From Klebsiella phage KP13-16: a stretch of 64,000 nt of DNA. How positions within the stretch are numbered: position 1 is the stretch's first letter; the number at the start of each line of letters is the position of its first letter. The stretch lies in sequence record OP617741.1. One strand, written 5' to 3'. Below, in pieces: positions 39,349 through 63,111 of the stretch. The notes under the pieces were generated by a model. That model did no database searches, was not told the DNA's origin, and was given only the letters and a program-made list of their open reading frames with translations. The translations under genes were made by a program, and so were the position numbers.

Positions 39349-40599
39349 TTAATCCTCACACTTTAAAAGAAATTTATTATTAATAACTTTAAAATGAATC
39401 GTTTGATTATTCACTTTATTAATACTTTTATATACATCGCCTTCGGCAATCTTATGTTTGATTGAGGAATGGTCTGCTGATTTCAATGCATCTTGAATAG
39501 AATGATACTCATCAAAGAAGTATACGATATCTCCTTGTGGGACAGTTGTCAACCCGAGAGTTGCACAAAATTCTAAGAAATCACTATCATCCAGAAAACA
39601 TTTGTTATCAATGTCCCATACACGAAAAGCATAAAACTGATGTTCTTCCAACTCTTCACGATTCCCTTGAATACCAGGACCCATACACTCACCTTGAATA
39701 GCAAGTTGACGATTATGCTGTACACAATAATCTTTAAGACGTGCAGGAATATCATCTTTTAATGCTGCTTTCCAAAAATGTGACTCTGGATCAAATTTTA
39801 GTGCCAGATTACGGGAACAAACAGAAATTTGACCATCTTCCCATTGGAAAGGATAAGGCTTCACTTCTACAATATCAAGTTCTCCAGTCTCTGCATTCCA
39901 TTCACGTACCTCATCATCCACTTTTTCAACATAGAATTCAGGATTACTCATAAAAGCAATAGTTTGACTAGAACCATCTAACTTAAGTGATTTACGAAAA
40001 CCAACACCTTTCATCGTTTGGGAATACTTACCAAAAACATTTTGAATACGCTCTTCGTCTGTTTTTGGGATGACAATGGGAAAGTTTCCAGCAGATTTAC
40101 AGTTTTGCAACCCTGTGCCACCATTGCGTTCATCTGGTCTTTCGTATTTTGTTACGTTAAGAAACTCTTCAAGTCCATGACGAGATTCTTCTAGCTCCTC
40201 TAATAATTCTGCCATTGCAGTTTCTACTGAAATAGGATCATCATTATCTTGCCAGATAACAGTTAATAATTCATTCCAGAATGATGAAACTGGGAGTGCC
40301 AAACCTTGTGAAACAACGCCACGAAGTTTTTTAGTCCGAAGCCGAAAACGTTCAACATTTTTATCATCCACTTTGCAGGAACTTCCTGCTAAAAATGCAA
40401 ATTGTTTTGTTTGCACTGGGACGAAAGAATCAATTTCGAAGAAGACACAATAATCTCCGATTTGAAATTCTCCTTTCTTTACTACTACGTCCCAACCATC
40501 TACTGTAGCTTTTACAATAAGATCAGCACCTTCAATAGCTTCAATGTTGTTAATCTTACGGATAGTAACTAAACGACGACCTTCAGTAACTAAATTCAT
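39349..40599 (-). CDS. putative ATP-dependent RNA/DNA ligase (KxDG nucleotidyltransferase)
   Basis: A KLDGSS motif sits mid-protein after an N-terminal beta-rich domain. The architecture resembles DraRnl/Rnl5-type RNA ligases. 416 aa. Confidence 0.4.
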   Translation of the reverse strand: MNLVTEGRRLVTIRKINNIEAIEGADLIVKATVDGWDVVVKKGEFQIGDYCVFFEIDSFVPVQTKQFAFLAGSSCKVDDKNVERFRLRTKKLRGVVSQGLALPVSSFWNELLTVIWQDNDDPISVETAMAELLEELEESRHGLEEFLNVTKYERPDERNGGTGLQNCKSAGNFPIVIPKTDEERIQNVFGKYSQTMKGVGFRKSLKLDGSSQTIAFMSNPEFYVEKVDDEVREWNAETGELDIVEVKPYPFQWEDGQISVCSRNLALKFDPESHFWKAALKDDIPARLKDYCVQHNRQLAIQGECMGPGIQGNREELEEHQFYAFRVWDIDNKCFLDDSDFLEFCATLGLTTVPQGDIVYFFDEYHSIQDALKSADHSSIKHKIAEGDVYKSINKVNNQTIHFKVINNKFLLKCED

Positions 40600-44600: not shown

Positions 44601-46721
44601 TTAAACCCTTATATGTTTTACACGTTGAACAACTTCCTGCATCTTCCCCTTGTTAAAAGGTCTACTGTTAGGTGCAGATAAGTAACCTGAGACTCTCCGA
44701 ATGACGTTGATCGTTCCTTCCTCAGTATTGCCACAATCAGGGCATTCAAAGCCTTCTGCTGTTGCTTTAAACTCTCCATGAAAGCCACACTTCAGACATT
44801 TATCAACAGGTTGATTAATCCCAAAGTAATGAATATTTTCATATCCATAGTCAATCAAAGCTTCCAAGCCTTTCATGTTATTTTTGAGATTTGGTGTCTC
44901 GACATAACCTATATTACCACCTGAACTGATAAAGTCAAACCCTGATTCAACATCCCATTTAGTAAAAGGATCAACTTGTTGGTCTACAGGAACATGGAAA
45001 GAGTTAGTCAAGTATTCTCTCTTGATAGTTCCAGGAAATTTCGCATTGATTTTACTGGCAAATTTATAACACAAAGACTCCGCTGGAGTTCCGTAGATAC
45101 CAAAACCAATACCTGTTTTCTTCTTATAAGCCTCTGCCATTTCTGACATAAGACTTAAAATCTTTTTCCCGTAAGCTTTATATTCCTCTAAACTACAATT
45201 TGGATAGAGAATTTGAATTGCTTCATATAACCCTACATAACCAAAACTTGCTGAAGCATAACCTTTGTAGAAAAGTTTGTCAATAGTTTCTTCAGGATCT
45301 AGTCTAGCTAATGCTCCTTCAACAAACATCACAGGATTTTGTTTTGCTTTAGTTCCCTTAAGGCGATTAATCCTCAACATATGTGCTTCATATGCTGTTT
45401 GCATATGCTTATAGAGTTCTTCCAGGAAAAGTTTACCACTACTGACAGAATCTTTAGCTATCATTGGTAAATTCAAAGAAACTACACCAAGATTAAATCT
45501 ACCATCATATTTCTCACCTTGTTCTGTAGCAAAATAAGAAAGGAAACTACGACATCCCATGCTAGTAACGTGACCTTTTGAAGATTTTGTAACCAGTTTA
45601 TTTCTAGGGACTGAAATAAAATCTGGGTAAATTCTTTCTGCACAACACTCCATTGCTAATTGTTTAAGGTCATAATTAGGATCACCAGGATTCATGTTGA
45701 CACCTTCTTCAAGGAAGAAAATTACTTTTGGGAACACAGGCGTTACTTTATCCTTACCTAAACCCTCTTTGTGGATTTTTAGATAGTTACGAGTAATCAT
45801 TCTACCAAATTCTGAGGTATCTAAACCAAGACTAATGGTGATAAATGGAGATTGTCCATTTACACTCATTAATGTGTTAACCTGGTAGATAAGAGTTTGC
45901 ATTGCATCGTAGACATCTTGCTCTGTAAGTTGCATTGCATTTATTTTGACTTCAGCACCAAATAAATTTCTAATAAGTTTTACATTTTTATTATAAGTCA
46001 GTTCTACATATTGCTTTAAACCTGTATCAATATGTGCGCAAGTTTGTCCACCATATTGGCTAGAGGCTACAGCCTGAATAATTTGTGTCAACACTGTAGT
46101 AGCAACACCAATTGATTTAGGTTTTTCAATGAAAGCATTTCCAATATGGAAACCATTTTCTAACATGTCTTGGTAATTAACGAGACAACAGTTGCTGAGA
46201 GGGCTGATTAGATAATCTAAGTCATGAATATGTCCAAAACCGCTTGTATGCCATTCTGAGAGGTCTTTAGGTAGTATTTGAGTCAATGCTACATGCTTAC
46301 TTAAAATCCCTGCTAAGAGGTCTCTATGAGTATTTACAACGTTACTGGGTTTGTTAGCATTCTCACGAGTAAATTCTTCTGCTGTTTGTTCTAAGAAGCC
46401 AGATATGTCATTATAAAGTTTCCCATTACCTTCACGGATTTTATCTCTGTCGTGCCTATACTCAATATAAGTTCTGGCTATGTCATATGTCTTTGGATTA
46501 GACATAAGGAAATCTTCAATCATTTTTTGAACATTTGAGACTGACTTATTCTCATTGAGATTTTTAACAATATATTCTGTAACCTCGTGAGCAACAAGTT
46601 CTGCTGTGATTGATAATGAAGAGTTAGCTAGTGCTGCTTGATATATTGCATTGTAAACTTTACGTTCATCAAATTGTTCTGTGCGCCCGTCGCGTTTTAT
46701 AATTTTATGTTGATACTGCAT
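44601..46721 (-). CDS. nrdD: anaerobic ribonucleoside-triphosphate reductase
   Basis: The ATP-cone is KIIKRDGRTEQF. The glycyl-radical loop is RVSGYL. The C-terminal Zn site is CLKCGF...CPDCGN. The start was moved to the ATG at 46721, which has a GGAGGA RBS. The listed 46748 start lies in a hairpin loop and has no RBS. Confidence 0.88.
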   Translation of the reverse strand: MQYQHKIIKRDGRTEQFDERKVYNAIYQAALANSSLSITAELVAHEVTEYIVKNLNENKSVSNVQKMIEDFLMSNPKTYDIARTYIEYRHDRDKIREGNGKLYNDISGFLEQTAEEFTRENANKPSNVVNTHRDLLAGILSKHVALTQILPKDLSEWHTSGFGHIHDLDYLISPLSNCCLVNYQDMLENGFHIGNAFIEKPKSIGVATTVLTQIIQAVASSQYGGQTCAHIDTGLKQYVELTYNKNVKLIRNLFGAEVKINAMQLTEQDVYDAMQTLIYQVNTLMSVNGQSPFITISLGLDTSEFGRMITRNYLKIHKEGLGKDKVTPVFPKVIFFLEEGVNMNPGDPNYDLKQLAMECCAERIYPDFISVPRNKLVTKSSKGHVTSMGCRSFLSYFATEQGEKYDGRFNLGVVSLNLPMIAKDSVSSGKLFLEELYKHMQTAYEAHMLRINRLKGTKAKQNPVMFVEGALARLDPEETIDKLFYKGYASASFGYVGLYEAIQILYPNCSLEEYKAYGKKILSLMSEMAEAYKKKTGIGFGIYGTPAESLCYKFASKINAKFPGTIKREYLTNSFHVPVDQQVDPFTKWDVESGFDFISSGGNIGYVETPNLKNNMKGLEALIDYGYENIHYFGINQPVDKCLKCGFHGEFKATAEGFECPDCGNTEEGTINVIRRVSGYLSAPNSRPFNKGKMQEVVQRVKHIRV

Positions 46722-46737
46722 TATTCCTCCAAAATAA

Positions 46738-46759
46738 GAAGCCAGCATTAACTGGCTTA
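46738..46759 (-). terminator. hairpin attenuator (AGCCAG-cattaa-CTGGCT) upstream of nrdD
   Basis: 6-bp stem. On the transcript it is followed by a U-rich tract and then the nrdD RBS. Confidence 0.35.
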
Positions 46760-47234: not shown

Positions 47235-47845
47235 TAAAGAGTTTCTCTTGTATTATTTAAATCTTCAGAAACTCTATTAATTTCTTTTTGTAAGATATCC
47301 TTATACTGAGGATATTTTTCTATCAAAGTTAAACCTTGATTTATATACAACATTTGCCAAGCTCTATGTGCTTCAACAGGATCTGTGAAACCATGTATGG
47401 CAATATCATGAAACCTAGCCCTATATCGAGGTACTTTCTGATATTTATTTTTCTGTTCAGAAACTCCCAATGGTAAATTATTTTTAGAGTATCTTTTTAT
47501 AATATAATTATTTAAATCTTTACCTACAAAACCACAGGTGCTTGGAGAGTATATTTTACTAACCCCAGATAAGAGATCCTTGTCCAGTTCCTTTCCTTCC
47601 CAATCTTGGGTTTCCATCCAGGCACGAAAATTACCAAATGTCAACCATTCTTCACAAACACTACAACCTTTATAAGTAGGAAATCTTCTTTGGTAATTTT
47701 CACTATAACAACGCCTTAGCATATTCGTCCAACGATCATAATATGGATCTCGCCAAAATACAACTTCTTTACCATTCATACGTTTACTTTTTTGAGTTAT
47801 ATCTTCTAGATCATTGTATCCCTTACCAAAAAGTAATTTATTCAT
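47213..47845 (-). CDS. AP2-domain / homing-endonuclease-like protein (paralog A)
   Basis: The N-terminal motif is WTNMLRRCY...YKGCSVCEEW. The C-terminus is AP2-like (RYRARF...HGFTDPVEAHRAW). Paralogous to 52239..52901. Confidence 0.45.
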   Translation of the reverse strand: MNKLLFGKGYNDLEDITQKSKRMNGKEVVFWRDPYYDRWTNMLRRCYSENYQRRFPTYKGCSVCEEWLTFGNFRAWMETQDWEGKELDKDLLSGVSKIYSPSTCGFVGKDLNNYIIKRYSKNNLPLGVSEQKNKYQKVPRYRARFHDIAIHGFTDPVEAHRAWQMLYINQGLTLIEKYPQYKDILQKEINRVSEDLNNTRETLYCGIGEY

Positions 47846-49134
47846 TACAATTCTATCTCAAGTAAGTAATCAAGTCTAACTTGACTCAGGTCAAAGACTA
47901 CAATCTCATCATTTCTCACCCCAGAGTATCCAGCCTTAGCCCAATAAGATTGGTATCCTTTTGGAGGGCGTTGACTTGTTGGTCCTGTTGGGGTATAAGC
48001 ATTTCCAACAGCCACTGAAACTAGAAACATGTAAACTTTTCCATTCCCCTGACCACCACCCGTATAATACATGTTATCACAATATTGGAGACTTTTTGAA
48101 GATTGATTTGCGAAATACAATCCTGTTGAGAACATGGCCCCTGCCTTAACACCAGGACTATCTTTAGGCATCATTAACCCTTTACAGAAAATAGATAACA
48201 AATTAGCTACACGTGTTCCGTGCCACAGTTCATGAACATTACCATACTCTGTGATAGCTTTATCAAATGGTGCTTGCTGATTTCCAAGATTAATTTTATA
48301 GATATTCTTAACTTTAGAACCCATGATGCGACCGCCGTGTTGGGCATTTTTACTTTCATTGTAGTAATTAACAATACGATCAATTGTAGCAGAATCTTCA
48401 ACATGAGAGATACCAAAATTAAAGATTTTTTCTACTTCAACTTCTTCTTTAGGTTTATCTTCCTGATTCTTTTTAAGTTCTTCAATAAGGTCTAATGTTT
48501 CCAGAAGTGCTTTACAGATTTCACGTTGTTCGTCAATGTTTTTGTGACTAAACAGCAAGTGACGTTTATCACGTGTAGTTGCAACTTTATTAGGAATAAG
48601 AACAAAATAAGAATCATTTAAAGTTAAGATCTCATCTTCACCTTTACCACTCTTTTCATATTCATCCAAAAGGGATTCAATATTACCAAGATGGATCATT
48701 GCTTCTTCCACAGCAGCTTTCTTTACAACTCCTAAAGGAGTCTTAAACAGACCATCTTTTTCATCATATTTAATGTTAGTAGAACTGGTGATATTATGGA
48801 TGTTTGCTTTAGCAATTGCTTGAATAAGATTACGACTTGTGTCGTCTTTACAATCAATTTGCTTAAGTGCAATGTCTACTACGTTAACTTTTTGAGTCAA
48901 CCCAGTTTCACCAGAGACAGCTTCTAGTTGTGCTTCTTTATAACCTTTCTTGATTTTAGATGCAACAAGACTGTCAAACTTCTTTTTACCACCAGAGTAG
49001 GAGGTAGTTTGAACCCCGCCACCTACCCGACCAAAACGAACTGCAATATTTCCAACGTCATCTAAGGTTGCTTCATAGAATTTATTGTTATTATTCTTTG
49101 AATCAAACATGATTAGCATTTTACTCTCAGACAT
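47845..49134 (-). CDS. WGR-domain poly(ADP-ribose) polymerase (PARP) catalytic homolog
   Basis: N-terminal WGR-like domain (YEATLDDVGNIAVRFGRVGGG...KGYKE). The C-terminus carries LWHGT and GAMFSTGLYFA. It continues through FLVSVAVGN to RNDEIVVFDLSQVRLDYLLEI. Together these give the PARP H-G-S/T, Y and E motifs (H-Y-E triad). Confidence 0.85.
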   Translation of the reverse strand: MSESKMLIMFDSKNNNNKFYEATLDDVGNIAVRFGRVGGGVQTTSYSGGKKKFDSLVASKIKKGYKEAQLEAVSGETGLTQKVNVVDIALKQIDCKDDTSRNLIQAIAKANIHNITSSTNIKYDEKDGLFKTPLGVVKKAAVEEAMIHLGNIESLLDEYEKSGKGEDEILTLNDSYFVLIPNKVATTRDKRHLLFSHKNIDEQREICKALLETLDLIEELKKNQEDKPKEEVEVEKIFNFGISHVEDSATIDRIVNYYNESKNAQHGGRIMGSKVKNIYKINLGNQQAPFDKAITEYGNVHELWHGTRVANLLSIFCKGLMMPKDSPGVKAGAMFSTGLYFANQSSKSLQYCDNMYYTGGGQGNGKVYMFLVSVAVGNAYTPTGPTSQRPPKGYQSYWAKAGYSGVRNDEIVVFDLSQVRLDYLLEIEL

Positions 49135-50008: not shown

Positions 50009-50656
50009 TTAAAAGGTCTGATTTAGCTCCGTTAGAGTCATAACAGAACCTTCTTGAGTCAGAATAAACTCATTGTCTCCAACAGAGTCAAGAGTATAAC
50101 TTCCTTTTGGTGTTTTTACAAGGAAAGAATCCACATTTACAGTAGTGAAACCAAAAGAATTTTCCTCAAAATATCCATTTTTAACCTCTGGAGTCAAACC
50201 AATGCAGATAGCATCACCTTTAACACATAAAGCTTTTACATTTTTAATGGTATATTTTTCACCTGTTGAATAGTAAACGGTAATGTCAGTTTTCTTACGA
50301 ACTGGGACTGGTTTACGCTTCTTGTGAAAACGTGGTTTTGCTACTTTAATTTCTTTATTCATTTCTTCTCCTAAAAGTGCATTAACAAATTCTTCTGGTT
50401 TAACATAATAGTATTCATTATTAGACATGGCATCTAAGTGCCATCCGGTGAGTGTAGTCCCGGCATTATGACTTACAAGACACCATATATCTTTTTCATC
50501 ATAACTATTGAAATTATTGAAAAATCTAATAAAATCTTTATAACTCCAGTCTTCTGAAACATCAAGAGAAAGAAATATTTTTCCTAAAATACTACGATAA
50601 TTATCTTCACCATAAAATTTAACAAATTCATTTTTTAAAACATAGCCTTTATACAT
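50009..50656 (-). CDS. hypothetical protein
   Basis: 215 aa. Confidence 0.45.
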   Translation of the reverse strand: MYKGYVLKNEFVKFYGEDNYRSILGKIFLSLDVSEDWSYKDFIRFFNNFNSYDEKDIWCLVSHNAGTTLTGWHLDAMSNNEYYYVKPEEFVNALLGEEMNKEIKVAKPRFHKKRKPVPVRKKTDITVYYSTGEKYTIKNVKALCVKGDAICIGLTPEVKNGYFEENSFGFTTVNVDSFLVKTPKGSYTLDSVGDNEFILTQEGSVMTLTELNQTF

Positions 50657-50775
50657 ATTCTATTTACCTATACGATCAATTAAAGTTAAGTCCAATACCA
50701 CCGGAAGGAATAACAACCATCCAGGATAATCTTCTTGAAATAAGTGTCTTAAGACAATATAACTAATTACTGTAA

Positions 50776-51705
50776 TCACTTCTTATCTCCACTTTTACTT
50801 TTCATAATAGAGCTTAAAGATACAAGCGGGGTTTTGGGTACAGGTTTCTTTCTAGGGACATAATTTTTGACAAATGGATTAAGATTTTTAGCAATCTCTG
50901 GGATGGACATTCCTAAGAGTTTGCTTGCTTCTACCATTTTTGATCCCACCTCTTTTCCTACAATTACCATGTTATCTTTAGTATAACCTTGGGTTTGGTC
51001 TAACAGGATAAAGACTTTTTGAGACAGTTCAATTGTCTCTCCTGTTAATTTGCACTTAGTTCCTGAAAACTTAGCTTTAAACTCTGCAAAACTAACTGTA
51101 AACTCTTTCTTTTCCGCAGAGGCATGTTTAGCCATATCAGAATAGTAAGAGGCAATGCGTACATCTGGGGCAATCTGTTTATCTGACATCTTCAGGACTC
51201 CTTGATCATTACGGGATAGTTCAATTTTTTGTGTTAAGACACCATTCAAGTTATCATAAAAATTTGTATAGTCAATATCTTTAAAATAATTTTTATAAAC
51301 ATTAGATTCAAATTTAATTAAATGGTTGTATTTATAAGATAAAAACTTTTTATACCCTGGTGTAACTTTCTCTTGAACCACTCTCAAGATTGCTTCAGAT
51401 GTTTCATTGATCCTTACTACTTGTACTTCGGTTTTGTCAAGAGCATAATCTTTTATTCTATTTACTGCTGCTGAAGTTAAACAAACATTCCCTCGTTCAT
51501 AACCGAGTTTATCATCTAAACGTTCAATGGATATCTTATGTTTATCCTCATCAAAGGTAACACCAGTATAATCACACTTACCGTCATTCCGTAAGAAAAG
51601 TACTTTCATATCTTCAAGGGTTAATTTGAAATCAATACCACGCTTCCTGGCATCTTTTTTCTTAGATTCAAAACGTTTTTTGAGTTCTTGTTCGTCTAAC
51701 TTCAT
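50776..51705 (-). CDS. tandem HNH-like (His-Me finger-like) domain protein, possible homing endonuclease
   Basis: Two repeats of C..TG......I...LD...GY...N pattern (CDYTGVTF...SIERLDDKLGYERGNV; CKLTGETI...ILLDQTQGYTKDNMVIV). The catalytic His is not evident. Confidence 0.3.
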   Translation of the reverse strand: MKLDEQELKKRFESKKKDARKRGIDFKLTLEDMKVLFLRNDGKCDYTGVTFDEDKHKISIERLDDKLGYERGNVCLTSAAVNRIKDYALDKTEVQVVRINETSEAILRVVQEKVTPGYKKFLSYKYNHLIKFESNVYKNYFKDIDYTNFYDNLNGVLTQKIELSRNDQGVLKMSDKQIAPDVRIASYYSDMAKHASAEKKEFTVSFAEFKAKFSGTKCKLTGETIELSQKVFILLDQTQGYTKDNMVIVGKEVGSKMVEASKLLGMSIPEIAKNLNPFVKNYVPRKKPVPKTPLVSLSSIMKSKSGDKK

Positions 51706-51714
51706 ATAGACCTC

Positions 51715-52230
51715 TTATTTGATCACAGTGGCATTTTCAGGGATTTCAGCTTCATCAAGTACATAGATGGTAACATTGTACCCGGCTTCACACAATGTCT
51801 TTTTGATAATATCTTCAACAGAAGACCACTCTGCTCCTCCAAGACCTGCACCAAGTTTGGGAAGTCCAATTTTAAGATCCTGATTTTCAAAAAGCATTAG
51901 CTGTTTAGACATAGCTTTGAAAGAAGATTCAAGCTTATCTAAATCTGTATTTGGTTTTCCATCCTCACGTTTCCACCAACCCCACCGTCCGTATAAATTA
52001 TAAATACTTAAATTATACAATGGAGAATGGGCATATGAGAAATCTCCAAATTTTTTAGGGTCTCCTTTAATAGTTGAATCATCTGCAATAGCGACTTCCG
52101 GGAAAGCTTTATCTAAAAGTGGGGCAATCCCACGTTTACGTGCATTAAAACAGTTACATTGTTGTGCAATAACATTTACTTCTCCACTTTTTGCAGCCAA
52201 TAACAAATCCATCACTTTATATTTCAACAT
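51715..52230 (-). CDS. macro domain protein (ADP-ribose binding/hydrolase)
   Basis: VNVIAQQCNCFNARKRGIAPLL corresponds to the macro VNAAN...GGGV motif. LKIGLPKLGAGLGGAEW corresponds to the second macro motif hhFPxIGxGxxG. 171 aa. Confidence 0.65.
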   Translation of the reverse strand: MLKYKVMDLLLAAKSGEVNVIAQQCNCFNARKRGIAPLLDKAFPEVAIADDSTIKGDPKKFGDFSYAHSPLYNLSIYNLYGRWGWWKREDGKPNTDLDKLESSFKAMSKQLMLFENQDLKIGLPKLGAGLGGAEWSSVEDIIKKTLCEAGYNVTIYVLDEAEIPENATVIK

Positions 52231-52238
52231 ATTACCCC

Positions 52239-52901
52239 CTATAATTTTAATGTCTCTCTATTTAAACTTATATCTTCTTTTATATCTTGGATCCTATCAA
52301 GTAAGGCAGTTTCAACAACCTTATTAAAGTGTGCAGATTCTTTATATTTTTGTAAGCTTTCCTTGATTGCAATAATTTTATAATCTTGCCACTGTTTATG
52401 AGCAAGGTCTGGTGAGTTATGATAACCTAGATAAACAATCTTACCAGATACATGACAATAAGCTTGGAACCTATCCCTATGATGAGGCTTTTTCTTCTTT
52501 TTAAGACTTACCCCTAGTGGGAGGTGTCCTCTTGCAGATCTACTATCTGTTAATAGGCAGTTAATATAGTTCGGAACCATAACGCAAGTCTCTTTACTAT
52601 AAAGCTTATTACCTTTAATTAATATATCCTTATCAATGCATAAATTATCAAAATCCTTAGATATGGCCCAAGCTTTAAAATTTGAAAAGTATTTCCACTC
52701 TTCACTTACAGTACAACCTTCATAGACAAAATAATATGGATCTTTTTGTTTTAAATTATAACATCTTCTAAGAATGTCTTTCCATCGGCTATATATCGGA
52801 CAGAGCCAAATTTGCTTCCATTTACCATCTTCAAATCTATTTATAGAGACAGGGTCTACACTATCATTAATGCCATAGTTATGTACAAGTTTTTGTTTCA
52901 A
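52239..52901 (-). CDS. AP2-domain / homing-endonuclease-like protein (paralog B)
   Basis: WKDILRRCY...YEGCTVSEEW, with a C-terminal AP2-like segment (HRDRFQAY...LGYHNSPDLAHKQW). Paralogous to 47213..47845. Confidence 0.45.
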   Translation of the reverse strand: MKQKLVHNYGINDSVDPVSINRFEDGKWKQIWLCPIYSRWKDILRRCYNLKQKDPYYFVYEGCTVSEEWKYFSNFKAWAISKDFDNLCIDKDILIKGNKLYSKETCVMVPNYINCLLTDSRSARGHLPLGVSLKKKKKPHHRDRFQAYCHVSGKIVYLGYHNSPDLAHKQWQDYKIIAIKESLQKYKESAHFNKVVETALLDRIQDIKEDISLNRETLKL

Positions 52902-52915
52902 TCAAATCTCCAACT

Positions 52916-53299
52916 TTATAGACTAACTTGTTCTGCATCCTTCATCTCCATAAGTTTATCTAAATAATCTTTTGCCATCTTCTTATAATCTTCCGGGAAG
53001 TATTCACGATAGTAGTCTTCAAGAAGCATCATGATGCTTGGCTCTGGTCCACTTTCAATACTTGCACATTGCGGGCGCAAGTCGAAGAAATTCTTTTCTT
53101 TCTGTAACTTTGCTTCTTCGATTAACTTATCAACTTCTTTAATTTCAAGTTTAATCTTATGACAAGTTTTACTGAAATAACTTTGATCCATCTTTTTCCT
53201 GTTCACCGAACATTTTCGAAAGGAATGCAAATCTCTGATAAGTTCATTTCTAAAATTATTCAAAGCTATAACTAGTTTTTTGTTTTTATTCATTACCAA
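52916..53299 (-). CDS. hypothetical protein (family X copy 1)
   Basis: FRNELIRDLHSFRKCSVNRKKMDQSYFSKTCHKIKLEIKEVDKLI is paralogous to 55683..55958. Confidence 0.45.
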   Translation of the reverse strand: MVMNKNKKLVIALNNFRNELIRDLHSFRKCSVNRKKMDQSYFSKTCHKIKLEIKEVDKLIEEAKLQKEKNFFDLRPQCASIESGPEPSIMMLLEDYYREYFPEDYKKMAKDYLDKLMEMKDAEQVSL

Positions 53300-53532
53300 G
53301 GTGCCTCTTCTAATTGGGAATGGGAGATGCCCATCATATCTGCCAGATCGTCTTTTGTCAACAATTTTCTTTCAAACAAATTTGTAACCAGCAAAACAAA
53401 CATCTCACCTACGTTATTATTAGATTGCTCTAATAGTAACTGCTCAAGGTTAAAAGTTTTAGTATCACTATAATCCTCATTCGTAAGGAAGAAATGCTTT
53501 TGTTGTGGGTTTAGCATAGGTCTTTTCCTCAA
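53293..53532 (-). CDS. hypothetical protein
   Basis: 79 aa; it overlaps neighbouring genes. Confidence 0.3.
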   Translation of the reverse strand: MRKRPMLNPQQKHFFLTNEDYSDTKTFNLEQLLLEQSNNNVGEMFVLLVTNLFERKLLTKDDLADMMGISHSQLEEAPW

Positions 53533-53758
53533 ATCTCAGTTCGCCGTTAAGTTTTTCAATTCTATGTGGGAGAACATCCTGGCCCCACCAAGGCTTTTCA
53601 TGAATACGATAACTCCAGACTGTCATGAAAGAGTCTTCTTCAGTGCCTTCTCCTTTGATTCTAACAGTCTTATTATAGATATCCCGGATAGTAGCTTCTA
53701 TCCCATCTACTAAGACAATCTCATGAATTCTGTAAGGCATCTGGTATTCATTAGTCAC
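53477..53758 (-). CDS. hypothetical protein
   Basis: GTG start at 53758 with GGAG 7 nt upstream. It overlaps the NadR stop as GTGA (translational coupling). The listed longer start would overlap NadR by 58 nt. Confidence 0.35.
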   Translation of the reverse strand: MTNEYQMPYRIHEIVLVDGIEATIRDIYNKTVRIKGEGTEEDSFMTVWSYRIHEKPWWGQDVLPHRIEKLNGELRFEEKTYAKPTTKAFLPYE

Positions 53759-55356
53759 AAATATGCTCCAAGAATATGTTCTGAATAAACCTCTTCTAGA
53801 AAATCTTCCCAAAATTCCTTATCTACTGAAGAAGGATAATGAGAGTTTTCTGCTAAAATTTCAACTTCCTGTACAACCTTCTCAAGTTCTTCCTGAACCT
53901 CATTGAAAGGCATGTTACCAGTCTTAACAGATAAAATCAAGGGATTTTGTTCCATAGGATAAACAAGATCACCATGCTTATAAATGTTAATAAGTTGATA
54001 TCCACCACGAAGAGCGTGGCTCAGAGCTTTCCAATCCACACCTTGATTAGCCTCAGCCAAACGTGCTCTATCGCCATATTCTTCCCACAGTTTAAATAAA
54101 GACGTCTTCATTTCTTTTACTGAGACTGTTTGTTGAAACTTTCTTCCAAGAACTTCATAAAAGATTTGATTTACACCATTTTTATCCGTAGCAAAGATCC
54201 AATATGCAAACTCATTGAGTGGAAAATATTCTTTGAAATCACCAACCTTTTTAGAATCATCTATTGTTTTAATACATTCTACAACTTCACGTAATGCTGC
54301 AAGCCTGGAGCCTTTAATTCCATACTTAGATGCTTGTTTCCTTACATAACCAAAAAGCCCTGTCAGCTTTTTAGTATAAAAACGGTGACGATTGTCACGA
54401 ATATATTGCCACGTTTCAGAATTGGTTACGAGCTTACTATCTGTATCTTGCAAACGGAGAGGATCAGCCACCCACTCAACTTCTGGGGAAAGGTATAGCA
54501 CCATGTCGTAGAAGTTATGAGCTTCTTCAACAGCCAACGACATAAACATACCATCATTGTAGCTCACTTTACCAGCACAAATTGCAGAAAAATGTGTTAT
54601 AAGATTGGTTGTATCTGAAATATGCACCACATGTGCCTGATTTGAGTTACTAAATTCCTCAATACGGTGGATCATAGCAATCTTAAGATATGCTTCACGA
54701 TCCATTAAAAATTCACTGCCATTGTACATCTGTTCGCAAATATGCCGCCCTACTTCGGGTGTTGATGTTGTTCCATAGTGCTGTGCTAGAAGCTCAGTCA
54801 TAGTGGATTTGCCAGTGCTCTCAACACCAATGATAGCTACACGTTTTACAAAACGAGGACGAGCTTGATCTGAAAGATACTCGAAGTTATCACGTAGATT
54901 AGTACGAATACGTGTTGCAGAGATATCCACTCCTGTACGCTCTGCATCCAACACAACATGCTCCACCTCTGGGAAATGCTCAGAGAAGTACTCAGTATAC
55001 TCCGGCTCAGAAGAGAAAGCATGTGTCAACACTTCCCCTTCTGGGATTTTAGCACGAATCAACTCAGCATAAGCCTTACCACCTTCTGGATAACCAGGAA
55101 TATCAGACTCATCCACATAATCTACAATCACTTTGTGTTGTAACCCTGAGTCTTGAATTAAAGATTTAAGATCCAATAAACGCTGGGTTAAACCTAGACG
55201 GTCTTGCATCCAAGGTGTTTGAGTGTCGTTAAACTTCTGGTCAAACGACAGAAACAGGTATAGCCGATCAATACCTGAATCTACAGCCATACGAATGAAG
55301 TTGACGTGTCCTGCTGTCAGGGGTGCAAATTTACCTAAAATTAAGCCTACGTTCAT
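53755..55356 (-). CDS. NadR-like bifunctional NMN adenylyltransferase / ribosylnicotinamide kinase
   Basis: The N-terminal GKFAPLTAGH matches the GxFxPxHxGH NMNAT motif. The central Walker A segment IIGVESTGKST resembles the NadR RNK domain (GGESSGKS). 533 aa. RBS AAGGAG. Confidence 0.75.
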   Translation of the reverse strand: MNVGLILGKFAPLTAGHVNFIRMAVDSGIDRLYLFLSFDQKFNDTQTPWMQDRLGLTQRLLDLKSLIQDSGLQHKVIVDYVDESDIPGYPEGGKAYAELIRAKIPEGEVLTHAFSSEPEYTEYFSEHFPEVEHVVLDAERTGVDISATRIRTNLRDNFEYLSDQARPRFVKRVAIIGVESTGKSTMTELLAQHYGTTSTPEVGRHICEQMYNGSEFLMDREAYLKIAMIHRIEEFSNSNQAHVVHISDTTNLITHFSAICAGKVSYNDGMFMSLAVEEAHNFYDMVLYLSPEVEWVADPLRLQDTDSKLVTNSETWQYIRDNRHRFYTKKLTGLFGYVRKQASKYGIKGSRLAALREVVECIKTIDDSKKVGDFKEYFPLNEFAYWIFATDKNGVNQIFYEVLGRKFQQTVSVKEMKTSLFKLWEEYGDRARLAEANQGVDWKALSHALRGGYQLINIYKHGDLVYPMEQNPLILSVKTGNMPFNEVQEELEKVVQEVEILAENSHYPSSVDKEFWEDFLEEVYSEHILGAYL

Positions 55357-55383
55357 GGGGTCTCCTTTGTCTAATCAGTTTGT

Positions 55384-55412
55384 ATCTTAGATTACTATTA
55401 AGTAATTGTCAA
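55384..55412 (-). promoter_or_regulatory. sigma70-like promoter upstream of the NadR-like gene (TTGACA-17-TAAGAT)
   Basis: Read on the minus strand. A consensus -35 and a good -10 are spaced 17 nt apart, about 25 nt upstream of the RBS and ATG. Confidence 0.55.
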
Positions 55413-55537
55413 CTGTTAATTGGTTAATTAGGTATGTAGTTTGTTTTACACTTACAATGATACACCTCTAGGTAGGATAATCAAGGAAATAATAGTAAAT
55501 CGTATAACTACTATGGACATAGTATCCATAATACCTC

Positions 55538-55596
55538 CTATAAAAGAAAAGCTATCCGTCCCTTCCTATCTAACGATAGTCAGGAACGAATAGCTA
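55538..55596 (-). terminator. two-tier stem-loop with trailing U-run (putative terminator or structured RNA element)
   Basis: An outer imperfect 13-bp stem (agctatccgtccc / ggaacgaatagct) encloses an inner 5-bp stem (ctatc-taac-gatag). An A-run on the + strand gives a U-run on the minus transcript. It lies downstream of 55683..55958. Confidence 0.4.
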
Positions 55597-55682
55597 TAGA
55601 ATCTCCCCTCGCTTCGCTCGGCACCTTGTAGGGTTAGGGTAGCATATTTTTCAGCGAAAGTCAATATCCCTGAGACATTTAT

Positions 55683-55958
55683 TTAAGGCAGTGGAAAGTA
55701 AATTGTGTTGGACTCGTAATCGTAGTAGTATTGTATTCCAGTTTCACGAGATACACGTAGCGCCAGCTTAACTCCTGCAATGAGTTTGTCCATTTCAGCA
55801 ATCTCTTTACGGAAGCGTGTTACTGTGTGAGAGAATGCACTATGTGGCACCCATTTACGGTTTACACGATCACGTTTGAAGTGACGGAAATCTTCAATGA
55901 CGTTATTGCGCTGTTTACGCAGTACAGCCATCAGGTGGTAATACGGATGTTTGTTCAT
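55683..55958 (-). CDS. hypothetical protein (family X copy 2)
   Basis: RNNVIEDFRHFKRDRVNRKWVPHSAFSHTVTRFRKEIAEMDKLI is paralogous to 52916..53299. Confidence 0.45.
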   Translation of the reverse strand: MNKHPYYHLMAVLRKQRNNVIEDFRHFKRDRVNRKWVPHSAFSHTVTRFRKEIAEMDKLIAGVKLALRVSRETGIQYYYDYESNTIYFPLP

Positions 55959-55969
55959 TATTTTACTCC

Positions 55970-56248
55970 TTACTTAGGGAACACAGAACCGGGGGTAGCT
56001 TCTTCCATTTGCAGAAGCTGTTCACACATACCATACACCTCTCCGTATGTGATCTCGGTTATACCTGTGTCGTCACAAATCATTTCACACAGTTTATTAA
56101 TGTCTATGCCACCGCAACGCTGCTCGGACTTACGCATCCCTTCACCTTCTTTCCAGTCAACTGGAGACTGGAGAAGAATCAGTTCTCCATTACCCAGTTC
56201 AACCAGGTAATCTGCAATATTTTCGCGTGGGGTATATTGTTCAGTCAT
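55970..56248 (-). CDS. hypothetical protein
   Basis: 92 aa, acidic, moderately GC-rich. Confidence 0.45.
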   Translation of the reverse strand: MTEQYTPRENIADYLVELGNGELILLQSPVDWKEGEGMRKSEQRCGGIDINKLCEMICDDTGITEITYGEVYGMCEQLLQMEEATPGSVFPK

Positions 56249-56670
56249 TTTATCTCCTTAACAAAATCAGATGCACGATCAAACCAGAATGTGCAATGTT
56301 TTTCAGTGGCTTCTATTAAAGCATCAAATGCTTCTTGTGTCAACTCCACAGGGGTATACCGATTTGGACGCTCATAGTATAAACCAGTATAAGTCCTTTC
56401 AAAGTCTTTCTGGCGTTCTTTCAGGCCTTCCACGGTTAAGCCTACCATATACCCATCCTGTTTACTACCCCAGCCTGCTTCAGATTCGATAACAGGGATA
56501 CAGAAGCCATAAAAACGCTCTGTATCGCTCTCCACCGGGTTTTTAGCAGAAGCCGCACCGTTTTCCCATCCCTCTTTAAAAATCGTATACAGCTTCTCGT
56601 AGAGGCTTCTATTCGAGCCTTCTTTGTATGGGTGAAGTTCTTCAAACTTCGCACGAATAGTGTTTGTCAT
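56245..56670 (-). CDS. hypothetical protein
   Basis: 141 aa. Confidence 0.45.
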   Translation of the reverse strand: MTNTIRAKFEELHPYKEGSNRSLYEKLYTIFKEGWENGAASAKNPVESDTERFYGFCIPVIESEAGWGSKQDGYMVGLTVEGLKERQKDFERTYTGLYYERPNRYTPVELTQEAFDALIEATEKHCTFWFDRASDFVKEIK

Positions 56671-56679
56671 AAAAGCTCC

Positions 56680-56814
56680 TTACTCCATTAATGAAAAAAT
56701 CAAACAAAGAATTTGTCCACCAATACAAATAAATCCTGCGGTAAGGTTATCAAAACCCCAAATGAAAACATTTGCTAAAATCATCAATAAAATATTAAGA
56801 CCAAACCACATCAT
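56680..56814 (-). CDS. small hydrophobic membrane peptide (44 aa)
   Basis: MMWFGLNILLMILANVFIWGF..., with RBS GGAGGTG. The upstream stop overlaps its start. Not in the supplied ORF track because it is under 60 aa. Confidence 0.3.
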   Translation of the reverse strand: MMWFGLNILLMILANVFIWGFDNLTAGFICIGGQILCLIFSLME

Positions 56815-57137
56815 TCACCTCCTTTAGGGATGTATTGCGGCATAGGCATGTATGCCACTACAGGCTCCCAGTCAAAGTAGAAACGACCATTAATCACTGC
56901 AAACTTACCACTACCACCCTGTACAACTTGGCAAACACCGTATTCCCCATCAGCCATGATGACAACCCAGTTGCCGAATGGCATGTTGTGGATACCATCA
57001 ACATCAATCCAAGGATGTTGTAAACTGTAAATCTTGTTTACGACCTCTGTGAAGTCTGGATCATACAAACCGAGGTCATGCGCAATGTTCAACAACATTT
57101 CTTTGTACAGTTCTTCACGTGTCATAGATTCAGCCAT
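56811..57137 (-). CDS. hypothetical protein
   Basis: 108 aa. Confidence 0.45.
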   Translation of the reverse strand: MAESMTREELYKEMLLNIAHDLGLYDPDFTEVVNKIYSLQHPWIDVDGIHNMPFGNWVVIMADGEYGVCQVVQGGSGKFAVINGRFYFDWEPVVAYMPMPQYIPKGGE

Positions 57138-57514
57138 TAGCGTACTTCCAAGCTTGGGATTAAGGTTTGTGGAGCAAAGATAACACGAGTGTGATCAACA
57201 CTCACCTGAGCACCATCAATTTGCTCAATGAAATAGGTGGTATCCGTAGAGAGTCCCATATAATGTTTCTTCACAGAACCGTTAGCCTTATCACGACAAG
57301 TGATGATCAGTGTACGATCAGTGCTACTGTTATCTTTCGCACAGTAACCTTCAATACGCATTAACTCTTTGTCTGTACGAGTGTTGATGAAGTGGGTGGA
57401 ACGCAACACTTCGAAGTTATCGCCAGCGGTGGCGATGTTACGACTTGCAACGTCAGCAGCTTGTTCACAACCAGCCAAACCCAAGCATAAAGCAATCAGC
57501 AGAATCTTTTTCAT
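57137..57514 (-). CDS. lipoprotein
   Basis: MKKILLIALCLGLAGCEQ combines a signal peptide with the lipobox LAGC. Confidence 0.6.
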   Translation of the reverse strand: MKKILLIALCLGLAGCEQAADVASRNIATAGDNFEVLRSTHFINTRTDKELMRIEGYCAKDNSSTDRTLIITCRDKANGSVKKHYMGLSTDTTYFIEQIDGAQVSVDHTRVIFAPQTLIPSLEVR

Positions 57515-57516
57515 TT

Positions 57517-57681
57517 TACTCTCCTTCTTTATTCACAATTTTGTAGTATGGAAGTTTCTTAATCAACTCTTCCGGTATACCGCTTTCAGACCAAGTGGCT
57601 CCACCGTCTGTAGAGGCGTAGCCCTTGTTGCCAACGTACTTACGCATGATAGCACGAAACATGTTTTGATAGATAGTCATT
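57517..57681 (-). CDS. small hypothetical protein (about 54 aa)
   Basis: MTIYQNMFRAIMRKYVGNKGYASTDGGATW.... It ends just before the lipoprotein RBS AAGGAG. Boundaries are good only to plus or minus 1 nt. Confidence 0.25.
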
Positions 57682-57753
57682 TACAAATACACCCACCAGA
57701 GAAAATACTACCATAACATTTCTCGCACATAACATCTTCAATAAATAATATTT

Positions 57754-58215
57754 TCATTTCTTCTTCCTCCTTTTAAGTTTGTTGTGACCACGACCTTTCG
57801 TGATACGGAAGTTGTAGTTCTCCTTCTCACGAGGCAGTGTAGGAGATCGTGGAGAGATACCTACCCAGTAGTCCATAGTATCAGCAGTGTAGCATCCTCC
57901 TGTGAACAAAGCAATAACCCTACCCTCTAGTGCAGAGTAATTGTCACATAAAACTACCGCTTTAACTTTCTGACGGTCTTTCCCCGTAGATGCTCCAATA
58001 ACACGCAACTCATCTTTTGTCTCACTTTCAAGAATCATCCATCCTTCATGCTGCCAATCATAGCCTTTGTCCCAACCAGCCATAGGGTAGCCATGCTCAT
58101 CGAAAATTTTACCATCTTCCATATAGAAGAACTCCTCGCTGGTAAAGTGACGGTTCTTAACACGTTTACCTTCACGCATTGCTTCTTGGGCTTGAGTCCA
58201 GGTTAATTCGTACAT
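57754..58215 (-). CDS. hypothetical protein with basic C-terminal tail
   Basis: Start moved to the internal ATG at 58215 (MYELTWTQ...), which follows the upstream stop as TAAaATG and has a GAGAGGG RBS. The listed 58362 start overlaps the upstream gene by 146 nt. Confidence 0.45.
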   Translation of the reverse strand: MYELTWTQAQEAMREGKRVKNRHFTSEEFFYMEDGKIFDEHGYPMAGWDKGYDWQHEGWMILESETKDELRVIGASTGKDRQKVKAVVLCDNYSALEGRVIALFTGGCYTADTMDYWVGISPRSPTLPREKENYNFRITKGRGHNKLKRRKKK

Positions 58216-58216
58216 T

Positions 58217-58456
58217 TTACCCTCTCTTTTCAATTTTAGTAACATTACGAGGCCAGATGATATCTCTGCTATTATAACTAATTGTATCACCTCCTCGGAT
58301 GAAACGATAGTTATTTCCCCACCCTTGTTCCCAAGCGAGGGCAACTTTAAAACGTTCACCATCTTTTGTTTCTATAAAGAAAGTTTCTTCATAATCTGGG
58401 TTGTCATAAATATTATCACAAGCCTGCTCTGTACCACTAAAATTCTTAAAATCCAT
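58217..58456 (-). CDS. hypothetical protein
   Basis: 79 aa. Confidence 0.45.
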   Translation of the reverse strand: MDFKNFSGTEQACDNIYDNPDYEETFFIETKDGERFKVALAWEQGWGNNYRFIRGGDTISYNSRDIIWPRNVTKIEKRG

Positions 58457-58458
58457 TA

Positions 58459-58893
58459 CTATACTCCTTTACAGAAGTTAACCACATCTTCATACGAGAG
58501 TCCAGCACGCTGGACCGCGTTCCGAATAGTTTCCTTTGCTGATTGAATGGCTTGCTCTTTTTCTTTCAAAAGTTGAGCGTTAGTTTTAACTTTACCAACC
58601 CAACCACCATAAGATTGCTGTCTGATTTCTGCAAACAGATGTTCTAATTCATTAGCTGGTTTAGCTATGAGTACTGGATTACCTACCTGAGTAATACTAT
58701 ACTCATAATATTCATTTTTACCAATACTTTTCAAGTACTTAATTGCATGTTCCGGGTTGTCTGCTTCAACATAGCCAAGATGCTTGATAGTACGGCCTTC
58801 GCAATCACCTTCAGTAGTTACTTTATAAATAGGCATCTTTTCTCTCCTCTTGTTTGTATGCAACAATCTTAGCAAACTGAAAATTAAAGTCAA
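58459..58893 (-). CDS. hypothetical protein
   Basis: 144 aa, the first gene of the minus-strand block at the divergent region. Confidence 0.45.
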   Translation of the reverse strand: MTLIFSLLRLLHTNKRREKMPIYKVTTEGDCEGRTIKHLGYVEADNPEHAIKYLKSIGKNEYYEYSITQVGNPVLIAKPANELEHLFAEIRQQSYGGWVGKVKTNAQLLKEKEQAIQSAKETIRNAVQRAGLSYEDVVNFCKGV

Positions 58894-61758: not shown

Positions 61759-63111
61759 ATGAGTAAAGAATTTGTTATTGAGACTGTATTAAATACATTT
61801 AAATATGAAAAAGCTCTTTTCAAAGAGTGTAATATGATGATTGCAGGCGGTGTTTTTACTTCCCTTTTTACCAAGAAAGAAGTAAATGATGTTGATTGCT
61901 ATTTTCGATCTAAAGCTGATCTTGTTCGCTTTCTGAATTATATTTCTGAGTACGGCGATAATCGTTTTTGTATCTCTATTACTGATAAATCTGTGACGTT
62001 GGTTGGTGGAAGTGTACCAATTCAATTGATCTATTTTAAGTATTTTGAAGATCTTCAAGATGTTTTCAACACTTTTGACTTCACAATCTCAATGTGTGGA
62101 TATGATTTCAAAACTGAAAAACTAGAATATCATCCTGATTTCTTTAGTGATTTATCACAACGCCGTCTGAGTTTTAATAAAAATACAGCATATCCTTTGG
62201 TTAGTGCTTTACGTGTAAATAAATTTAAAGATCGTGGGTATCAGATTTCTCGTAGTGAAATGATTAAGCTTCTTTTAACTGTTTCACAGCTTGAAATTAA
62301 AACACCCCGCCAGTTTATTGAGCAGATTGGTGGTTTCTATGGCAACAGTGCTTTGGCTGCGCTTTCCAAACTGGATGATAAAGATTTTGATCTTGAAAAA
62401 GGTCTGAAGGTCTTGCATGAATCTTCTGAAGGAAGTAACCCAGAAATCAATAAAGTTATTTCTAAACCTAACGAATCTAAGCTTGCTGTTCATCAACTTG
62501 CTCGCTTGATTGATTCAGATAATCCATTAGAGGGTGGTTGGTATCGAGAAGATAATGTGGCCTATTATAAATCTAAATATGGTCGTCATAGTATTCCTTT
62601 GGATATTGCTTTGCTGTTTGCACCTCAAAATGAAGTCTTTGAAAATGTAAACCCAGAAGAGCCTACTAGTGGAATGTTTTATAAATGGGTGCATAAAACA
62701 GAGAATCCAAATATCTTTAAATCTATTCACCGAGATTCTTTCTTATACGAACTGGGTAAAGATGCCGTAGATGAGCAATCTGGCTTATTCTTCTGCAAGG
62801 ATACAGATATTAAAGACCACTACTTTGCAAATCGTGAAGGCGTTGTTATGTTGATGTGTCTTGCAGAAATTAAAGATCGAACGGCTCACAGATCTAATGA
62901 ACTTCGTTTCACTAAGGTTAAAGTTCTGAGTGTTGTTAATGAGCCTTATGTCAAATCTCCTGACCTGTCTACTGTAGATATTAGTAGTAAATTTAATATC
63001 AAAGTCTCAGAGAATCATTGTCGAAATGAAGAACTGGATTTGGAAGATTTGCCTGAAGAAAATGAAGGGAGTACTGTTGAACCCCTCAGTGTAACCGGAC
63101 CAGTGTTTTGA
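61759..63111 (+). CDS. Pol-beta-superfamily nucleotidyltransferase-like protein
   Basis: AGGVFTSLFTKKEVNDVDCYF fits the G[GS]-x12-DxD pattern, with a downstream acidic residue (FDFTISM). 450 aa. Confidence 0.35.
   Translation: MSKEFVIETVLNTFKYEKALFKECNMMIAGGVFTSLFTKKEVNDVDCYFRSKADLVRFLNYISEYGDNRFCISITDKSVTLVGGSVPIQLIYFKYFEDLQDVFNTFDFTISMCGYDFKTEKLEYHPDFFSDLSQRRLSFNKNTAYPLVSALRVNKFKDRGYQISRSEMIKLLLTVSQLEIKTPRQFIEQIGGFYGNSALAALSKLDDKDFDLEKGLKVLHESSEGSNPEINKVISKPNESKLAVHQLARLIDSDNPLEGGWYREDNVAYYKSKYGRHSIPLDIALLFAPQNEVFENVNPEEPTSGMFYKWVHKTENPNIFKSIHRDSFLYELGKDAVDEQSGLFFCKDTDIKDHYFANREGVVMLMCLAEIKDRTAHRSNELRFTKVKVLSVVNEPYVKSPDLSTVDISSKFNIKVSENHCRNEELDLEDLPEENEGSTVEPLSVTGPVF

Follow-up and report, generated by a model that had tools for sequence, protein, structure and literature searches.

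An in-frame NadR–RlaP chimeric gene in Klebsiella phage KP13-16, probably the scar of a recent recombination between two phage lineages

Klebsiella phage KP13-16 is a purified lytic phage and a member of a four-phage cocktail (PMC10241881). Within a 64,000-nt stretch of its genome (record OP617741.1; hereafter the window, to which coordinates refer unless otherwise indicated), a single minus-strand open reading frame (ORF) at 53755..55356 encodes 533 aa between an ATG start and a TGA stop codon. Its product matches UYL04445.1 of KP13-16, deposited as 'hypothetical protein', exactly over all 533 aa. Comparison with related phages showed that this ORF is of chimeric origin. Residues 1–308 (58% of the ORF) are the only NadR-like portion, comprising a nicotinamide mononucleotide (NMN) adenylyltransferase (NMNAT) domain and a truncated ribosylnicotinamide kinase (RNK) domain, and residues 309–533 are the C-terminal helical domain of RlaP. 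A preliminary description had labelled the gene NadR-like; that label covers the first portion only, and the second, which belongs to an unrelated family, had been missed. We consider it probable (about 72%) that the chimera is a recent, redundant recombination scar in which a NadR without its tail has been joined to the non-catalytic half of RlaP, and not a new pathway.

DNA alignments located the junction. Positions 50604–54441 were 98.4% identical to Klebsiella phage FBKp34, and positions 54432–55379 were 95.7% identical to phage KP2025; these matches overlap by exactly 10 nt (54432..54441, minus strand). In a three-way alignment, the switch fell inside this 10-nt microhomology, GATAGTAAGC in the minus-strand reading, which occurs in each parental gene, the KP2025-like nadR as well as the FBKp34-like RlaP gene. 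Across the junction, the protein sequence is ...DPLRLQDTDSK|LVTNSETWQY.... Residues 1–308 were 97% identical to an intact 355-aa NadR (P0001) and 95–97% identical across the NadR proteins of the donor lineage, while residues 309–533 (53758..54432, minus strand) were 100% identical to residues 94–318 of an intact 318-aa RlaP (P0025). The identity of the RlaP part to its parent shows the event to be very recent. The backbone of the window is FBKp34-like (71% of 24 kb at 95%), and a block from ~54432 to ~57680 was imported from the KP2025/FKP3/KP13-26 lineage; this block measures at least ~3.3 kb, its right boundary being approximate.

A simple internal deletion between nadR and an RlaP gene in one ancestral genome was also considered, but the flanks trace to two lineages. 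This reading was rejected because no nadR was found among the genes upstream of RlaP in two RlaP-bearing relatives (FBKp34 and contig L007), and because, left of the junction, DNA similarity between the window and the NadR-bearing relatives was absent. The arrangement is instead explained by illegitimate recombination between two related Klebsiella phages of the Stephanstirmvirinae, in which an FBKp34-like backbone received the block from a KP2025/FKP3-like phage. The left crossover took place on the 10-nt microhomology inside two unrelated genes and, by chance, in frame.

The join could in principle have been produced by assembly or sequencing, as a false connection of two co-sequenced phages: KP13-16 and the NadR-bearing KP13-26 come from the same host and the same study, and the junction rests on a single sequencing run. 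However, an independent Logan re-assembly of that run (SRR21837335) reproduced the join: its 137,268-bp contig agrees with the window at 100% identity through 7,602 nt around the junction. Nor did the NadR part arise by cross-contamination from KP13-26, with which it shares only ~95% identity; moreover, the reading frame is preserved across the join, and the imported block runs for more than 3 kb. An overlap of 10 nt is shorter than assembler k-mers, which makes a misjoin unlikely. Together these points leave an artefact with hardly any probability.

Searches for full-length relatives of the chimera returned none. Among 2203 matching phage records, not one held at least 80% of the protein, and in 5.8 billion protein clusters none of the matches listed covered more than 62% of it. 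The cluster matches instead split into NadR proteins of 355 aa on one side and RlaP proteins of 318 aa on the other. Shorter NadR entries (P0028 and P0124) were cut at the N-terminus and kept the C-terminal tail. A junction-specific 26-mer was not found in IMG/VR, JGI metagenomes or GTDB representative genomes. Judged by these searches, the domain combination is new only in the literal sense that it was found nowhere else in the collections searched.

The junction removed the last 47 codons of nadR, equivalent to 47 of the 189 RNK residues, and with them a helix, strand 5 and the terminal helix. In an AlphaFold2 (AF2) model of intact P0001 (predicted local distance difference test score (pLDDT) 90.9, predicted template modelling score (pTM) 0.86), the LID loop is followed by a helix (306–323), a strand (329–332) and a second helix (337–353). 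The RNK domain of the chimera (residues 167–308; 54433..54858, minus strand) ends where helix 306–323 of the intact protein begins, and all three post-LID elements are removed. Nine positions in the tail region (K308, R309, T312, L316, Y324, V329, G334, R340 and A344) were invariant in 28 homologues; of these the chimera keeps only K308, the remaining eight having gone with the tail. Likewise, the Pfam AAA_28 match spans profile positions 1–135 of 164 in the chimera versus 1–164 of 164 in intact P0001. With the RNK tail missing, the complete five-stranded P-loop kinase fold is absent, and tblastn of the window detected no leftovers of the NadR tail.

An AF2 model of the fusion gave a mean pLDDT of 71.7, with values mostly of 80–93 in the NMNAT domain, 54–75 in the RNK domain and below 50 at residues 290–312; these confidence values are only indicative, as the input was a full-length alignment (A3) with some misaligned foreign termini. 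An alternative alignment built from truncated homologues (A4) was dropped as model input, as MAFFT had misplaced the RlaP fragments.

Upstream of the junction, the NadR assignment was consistent across methods. The NMNAT domain (residues 1–166; 54859..55356, minus strand) is apparently complete, judging from motifs, profile and PDB matches and AF2 confidence. It carries the (H/T)xGH-type motif GKFAPLTAGH (residues 8–17; 55306–55335, minus strand) and the second NMNAT signature ISATRIR of the form ISxTxxR (residues 145–151; 54904–54924, minus strand). The RNK domain has the Walker A P-loop GVESTGKST (residues 177–185; 54802–54828, minus strand), a Walker-B-like HISDTT (54607–54624, minus strand) and the nicotinamide riboside (NR) site residues, and it retains part of the LID, including the stretch DPLRLQDTDSK. 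The NadR part matched PHROG 3462 with E=1.3e-102. Its matches to TIGR01526 (nadR_NMN_Atrans; E=1.5e-48, 165.7 bits against a curated NCBIfam cut-off of 341.15) and to NadR PRK08099 (E=2.2e-41, 142.3 bits against a curated cut-off of 201) are significant yet short of equivalog level by these scores. Sequence matches in the PDB were all to NadR, with 9X6F/9X6H best, followed by 1LW7, 8X7F and 6GYE, and NadR structures also ranked top in a Foldseek search with the fusion model.

These results agree with the preliminary description in assigning a NadR-type NMNAT and a NadR-type RNK; the GKFAPLTAGH and GVESTGKST motifs lie on the minus strand where it had placed them. It had allowed that the P-loop domain might match an unrelated kinase family such as a deoxynucleoside monophosphate (dNMP) kinase and the N-terminal domain a cytidylyltransferase of other specificity, and the uniformly NadR matches in the PDB speak against both. 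It had also presented the pair as a fusion. The two domains stand, but the fusion is not new, since it is the ordinary NadR architecture minus the helix-turn-helix (HTH) domain. Bacterial NadR proteins (Haemophilus influenzae 1LW7, Escherichia coli 8X7F and Lactococcus lactis 6GYE) share the same two-domain fold (Foldseek E=2e-15 to 1e-9). The chimera differs from them in having no HTH domain, as do other phage NadR proteins, in its truncated RNK tail and in scoring below the NCBIfam cut-offs.

The closest characterised protein belongs to a phage anti-defence pathway. Phage operons of NadR and PnuC were suggested as a further NAD+ (nicotinamide adenine dinucleotide) reconstitution pathway in the 2024 paper on NARP1 and NARP2 (bioRxiv 10.1101/2024.02.11.579819), and the pathway, consisting of a NadR-like enzyme together with a transporter resembling PnuC, was demonstrated and named NARP3 in August 2026 in Science Advances (PMC13464706). 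In that system, Bas30_87 imports NR and Bas30_86 converts NR to NAD+; the transporter and both enzyme domains are needed, crystal structures have been solved, and mutation of the RNK residues E230 or D275 of Bas30_86 abolished function (PMC13464706).

Bas30_86 of Escherichia phage TrudiRoth (9X6H/9X6F) is, like the chimera, an HTH-less NadR with NMNAT followed by RNK, and the two are 39% identical over 295 aligned residues (E=1.8e-50). Residues of Bas30_86 conserved in the chimera include K10, F11, S37, E80, P84, G89, F110, S112, E230 and D275, the last two corresponding to E234 and D284. With respect to site 2 of Bas30_86, the chimera keeps the NMNAT residues K9, F10, S37, E83, P87, Y89, G92, Y96, F114, S116, V143 and I145, and differs at two positions (W90 to G93 and D115 to E119). 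Residues were mapped by HMMER alignment, the PDB chain number being the number used in the paper plus 6, and all 20 of the 20 residue identities checked agreed. Unlike the chimera, Bas30_86 (351 aa) has a complete RNK domain (residues 167–351) and an adjoining PnuC partner; the RNK of the chimera stops at ~298 in Bas30_86 numbering (PDB chain 304), and 225 foreign residues are appended.

KP13-16 encodes a second NadR. Outside the window, on the same 137,268-bp contig as the chimera and ~57 kb from it, locus L011 (KP13-16 contig SRR21837335_0, 32885–45931) contains an intact 348-aa NadR, UYL04343.1 (L011 6001–7047), which is 38% identical to the NadR part of the chimera. It sits two genes from a PF04973 (PnuC) transporter (L011 7367–8065). 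A NAPRTase-family gene (561 aa; L011 2291–3976) and a phosphoribosyl pyrophosphate (PRPP)-synthetase-like gene (266 aa; L011 4187–4987) run divergently from this NARP3-type pair. These two carry annotations of the kind seen for NARP1 (Namat plus Adps), and the locus ends with a SIR2-domain gene. In FBKp34, a separate 348-aa NadR and a PnuC occur at ~114 kb, beside an annotated nicotinamide phosphoribosyltransferase and ribose-phosphate pyrophosphokinase; an HNH homing endonuclease lies between the two NARP1-like genes of FBKp34, and the layout is otherwise that of KP13-16. On gene content, then, KP13-16 already holds a predicted complete NARP3-type module together with a NARP1-like pair, and the chimera is a second, partial copy. 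Given this complete resident module, the chimera is therefore best regarded as redundant and not as a new pathway.

The transporter gene is missing at the chimera locus. In KP2025, KP13-26 and phi1_175008, the 355-aa nadR is followed, two or three small genes on, by a gene for a PnuC-type transporter. A tblastn search of the 64-kb window with KP2025 PnuC found no homologue (best E=0.058); downstream of the chimera there are FBKp34-type small ORFs, and the NARP3 adjacency of a NadR-like to a PnuC-like gene is absent here. The crossover that truncated nadR also took away the pnuC that follows it in those three phages. The preliminary description had proposed that the gene provides NAD+ by salvage from NR, possibly as a distinct route. 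It was right about the kind of route, which is not new but is already known as NARP3 (PMC13464706). For the chimera itself an NR route does not hold up, as its RNK lacks 47 residues, pnuC is lost, and a complete NadR and PnuC are present elsewhere in the genome. The working route from NR to NAD+, of the NARP3 type, would be that of the resident pair.

The NadR proteins of KP2025, KP13-26 and phi1_175008 (cluster P0001) represent the direct donor lineage and have the same ribosome-binding site (RBS) as the chimera. They differ from it in keeping residues 309–355, in standing behind a 150-aa gene and not behind a promoter-like site of their own, and in being followed by pnuC. In the NadR of FKP3 (L003 2734–4740), annotated as 'RNA ligase', the Walker A loop is interrupted by an intein-like insertion of 312 aa (GVES|C...ITGN|CGKST), and the same insertion occurs in P0002, P0003 (667 aa) and several metagenomic relatives. 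Without its insertion, P0002 is 97% identical to the NadR part in the window; that part is uninterrupted and has T at position +1.

Downstream of the junction, residues 306–532 matched PHROG 388 ('nucleotidyltransferase') with E=3e-70, at profile positions 119–338 of 351 only. Homologues of residues 309–533 are T4 NrdC.11-like and RlaP (PF10127) proteins, which are RNA 3'-nucleotidyltransferases of the Pol-beta type that act in RNA repair, and the identity to T4-like and RB43-like NrdC.11 proteins was ~47–60%. A Pfam scan of residues 309–533 gave no RlaP match, and a PDB sequence search with intact RlaP P0025 returned nothing meaningful. According to the text of a recent preprint, from which we took the domain layout, RlaP begins with a nucleotidyltransferase (NTase) domain, where the three catalytic aspartates reside, and continues into a helical domain at the C-terminus; the final helix of this second domain packs against the first, and its cleft floor is proposed to bind RNA (bioRxiv 10.64898/2025.12.29.696909). 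The chimera contains the C-terminal domain, which is all-helical in the AF2 model, and not the N-terminal Pol-beta NTase domain with its catalytic aspartates. RlaP (P0025 and the PfRlaP structure) has an NTase part with the GS...DTD motif, which lies within the 93 N-terminal RlaP residues missing from the chimera; tblastn of the window revealed no leftovers of the RlaP N-terminus.

In the RlaP gene of FBKp34 (L002 3356–4312 / L004 10282–11238), an in-frame stop stands where the intact 318-aa protein has Q65, and the gene is annotated as two coding sequences (_100 and _101), one of them 'putative thioredoxin'; many T4-like NrdC.11 homologues in GenBank likewise bear the 'thioredoxin' label. KP13-16 retains RNA ligases even though its RlaP gene at the chimera locus has lost the catalytic half. 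One (PF09414), with a PHA02142 OB-fold domain, is encoded at window 39349–40599 (minus strand), and a second, of T4 Rnl1 type, at L011 10536–11240.

This domain combination raises the idea that the RlaP helical domain, taken to bind RNA 3' ends, brings the NadR adenylyltransferase or kinase to RNA, for instance in an NAD-linked RNA modification or a connection between RNA repair and NAD+ supply. The idea comes from the combination itself; the proposed RNA-binding cleft floor would be in keeping with it, as would the RNA ligase genes, of which the window has one (39349..40599) and other parts of the genome have more. Nevertheless, the architecture is a singleton, the RlaP part has remained 100% identical to the parental RlaP after fusion and so offers no evidence of selection, and the C-terminal helix of native RlaP packs on an NTase domain that is missing here. 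We regard this proposal as extremely improbable. A broader version, in which a newborn functional gene uses the RlaP helical domain either to stabilise the truncated RNK or to redirect the NadR domains to RNA, with a new promoter giving early, independent expression, seems only marginally easier to entertain and is still very improbable. If it were true, NAD+ synthesis would be tied to RNA repair or modification during infection.

A feature that sets the chimera apart from its relatives lies just upstream. In KP2025, KP13-26, phi1_175008 and FKP3, a 150-aa gene ends 17 nt before nadR, and the relatives' nadR is presumably co-transcribed with it because only 17 nt separate the two. At the chimera locus, a 36-nt stretch found only in KP13-16 (55380..55415, minus strand) replaces roughly 0.7–1.0 kb, comprising two to four small genes, upstream of nadR in four relatives. 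Its source was sought with blastn-short in the window and every fetched locus, with blastn in the phage collection and with an exact IMG/VR scan, and none was found. By comparison with these relatives, the stretch is a second rearrangement at the chimera locus.

The 36-nt stretch holds the sigma-70-like promoter candidate pointed out in the preliminary description, TTGACA-17-TAAGAT, which is indeed present as a sequence at 55412..55384 on the minus strand and agrees with the consensus at 10 of 12 positions; from the end of the −10 hexamer to the ATG of the chimera there are 27 nt. A Shine-Dalgarno sequence, AAGGAG, lies 5 nt before the ATG (55362..55367, minus strand) in an RBS region common to the relatives' nadR. 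The window contains 4 instances of TTGACA-N17-TANNAT versus 0.58 expected, a count that none of 100 shuffles reached. A looser promoter scan of 52500–58500 found 16 sites versus 17.2 expected, no excess over chance. The promoters annotated in FBKp34, the nearest relative, by its authors have the same TTGAC(A/T)...TAAGAT or TATGAT form. The site is thus a good promoter candidate by its sequence, and not a proven promoter.

Several observations weigh against reading the chimera as a mere scar. Its own promoter-like site and strong RBS would fit continued expression. The catalytic and binding residues tested in Bas30_86 all lie upstream of the junction, and most of the NMNAT ones and both RNK ones are conserved. 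The ratio of non-synonymous to synonymous substitution rates (dN/dS) of the NadR part was 0.08–0.13 against four relatives, the same as among intact genes, and the window-specific NadR changes were 6 synonymous and 2 non-synonymous, with no sign of decay; these changes are too few to inform on relaxed selection, and the recombination may be too recent for decay to show. The low RNK confidence in the fusion model is weak evidence of damage, the input alignment being partly misaligned. Finally, in the MAFFT alignment, the post-junction KLV-TNSETW..D..LTG weakly resembles the lost NadR segment KREYTNTLLW..D..ITG, and RlaP residues might conceivably take the structural place of part of what was lost.

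Such observations give some room to the model put forward in the preliminary description, in which the product is a functional bifunctional NadR (NR to NMN to NAD+) expressed early from its own promoter, with NR imported by the resident or host PnuC and the extension tolerated; it would serve as a second NAD+ reconstitution enzyme. In its favour, NadR matches are strong over residues 1–308, the Walker A motif, E234, D284 and most tested NMNAT residues are conserved, a promoter-like site and RBS are present, non-synonymous change is not in excess, and PnuC is encoded elsewhere in the KP13-16 genome. However, the RNK has lost a quarter of its length (47 of 189 residues) and with it two helices, a core beta-strand and eight invariant positions; the tail is kept in every other homologue among the matches listed; and the architecture is a singleton. 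A fully functional NadR is accordingly an unlikely outcome, though the foremost of the alternatives.

The opposite extreme, a product that is wholly inactive, misfolded or degraded from what is effectively a pseudogene, appears somewhat less likely again. The RNK tail losses and the orphan helical domain would favour it; the complete NadR and PnuC elsewhere mean that the gene is not needed, and the in-frame stop in the RlaP gene of FBKp34 suggests a damage-tolerant locus. On the other hand, NMNAT is a separate alpha/beta domain that was modelled with high confidence, all 533 codons are open, and the expression signals are intact. Under the recombination-scar reading, the product would be a complete NadR-type NMNAT followed by an RNK minus its last 47 residues and a helical, non-catalytic RlaP half. 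If folded, it would at most adenylylate NMN to NAD+. We infer, with moderate confidence, that it adds no more than this NMN adenylyltransferase capacity, NR phosphorylation being probably impaired and the RlaP piece inert.

Other genes in the window were also recorded. At 47845–49134 (minus strand), ~4.6 kb downstream of the chimera and in the same direction, lies a gene for a 429-aa protein that combines a WGR domain with the regulatory and catalytic domains of PARP and would consume NAD+. An anaerobic ribonucleotide reductase, NrdD, with ATP-cone, NRDD and glycine-radical domains (44601–46748, minus strand), lies in the same leftward gene block as a TerC-family integral membrane protein (41076–42053, minus strand). 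On the plus strand, a 450-aa ORF at 61759–63111 is 99% identical to a metagenomic protein with a precomputed Pfam PF26128 (Gad2, anti-Gabija) assignment; a local Pfam scan of this ORF gave no match.

The chimera has little bearing on NAD+ biology as such, since the pathway proposed for it is NARP3, of which a complete copy is present elsewhere in the same phage. The protein was deposited as hypothetical, and anyone relying on a domain scan would take it for a working NadR; our evidence suggests that it is probably not a complete one. The chimera lacks two features that define NARP3, an adjacent PnuC and a complete RNK, as well as the catalytic domain of RlaP. This calls for caution in domain-hit surveys of anti-defence pathways, as a NadR match without a full RNK and an adjacent PnuC does not amount to NARP3. 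The locus also offers a clean, datable natural case in which phage mosaicism, acting at a 10-nt microhomology, has yielded an in-frame multi-domain ORF.

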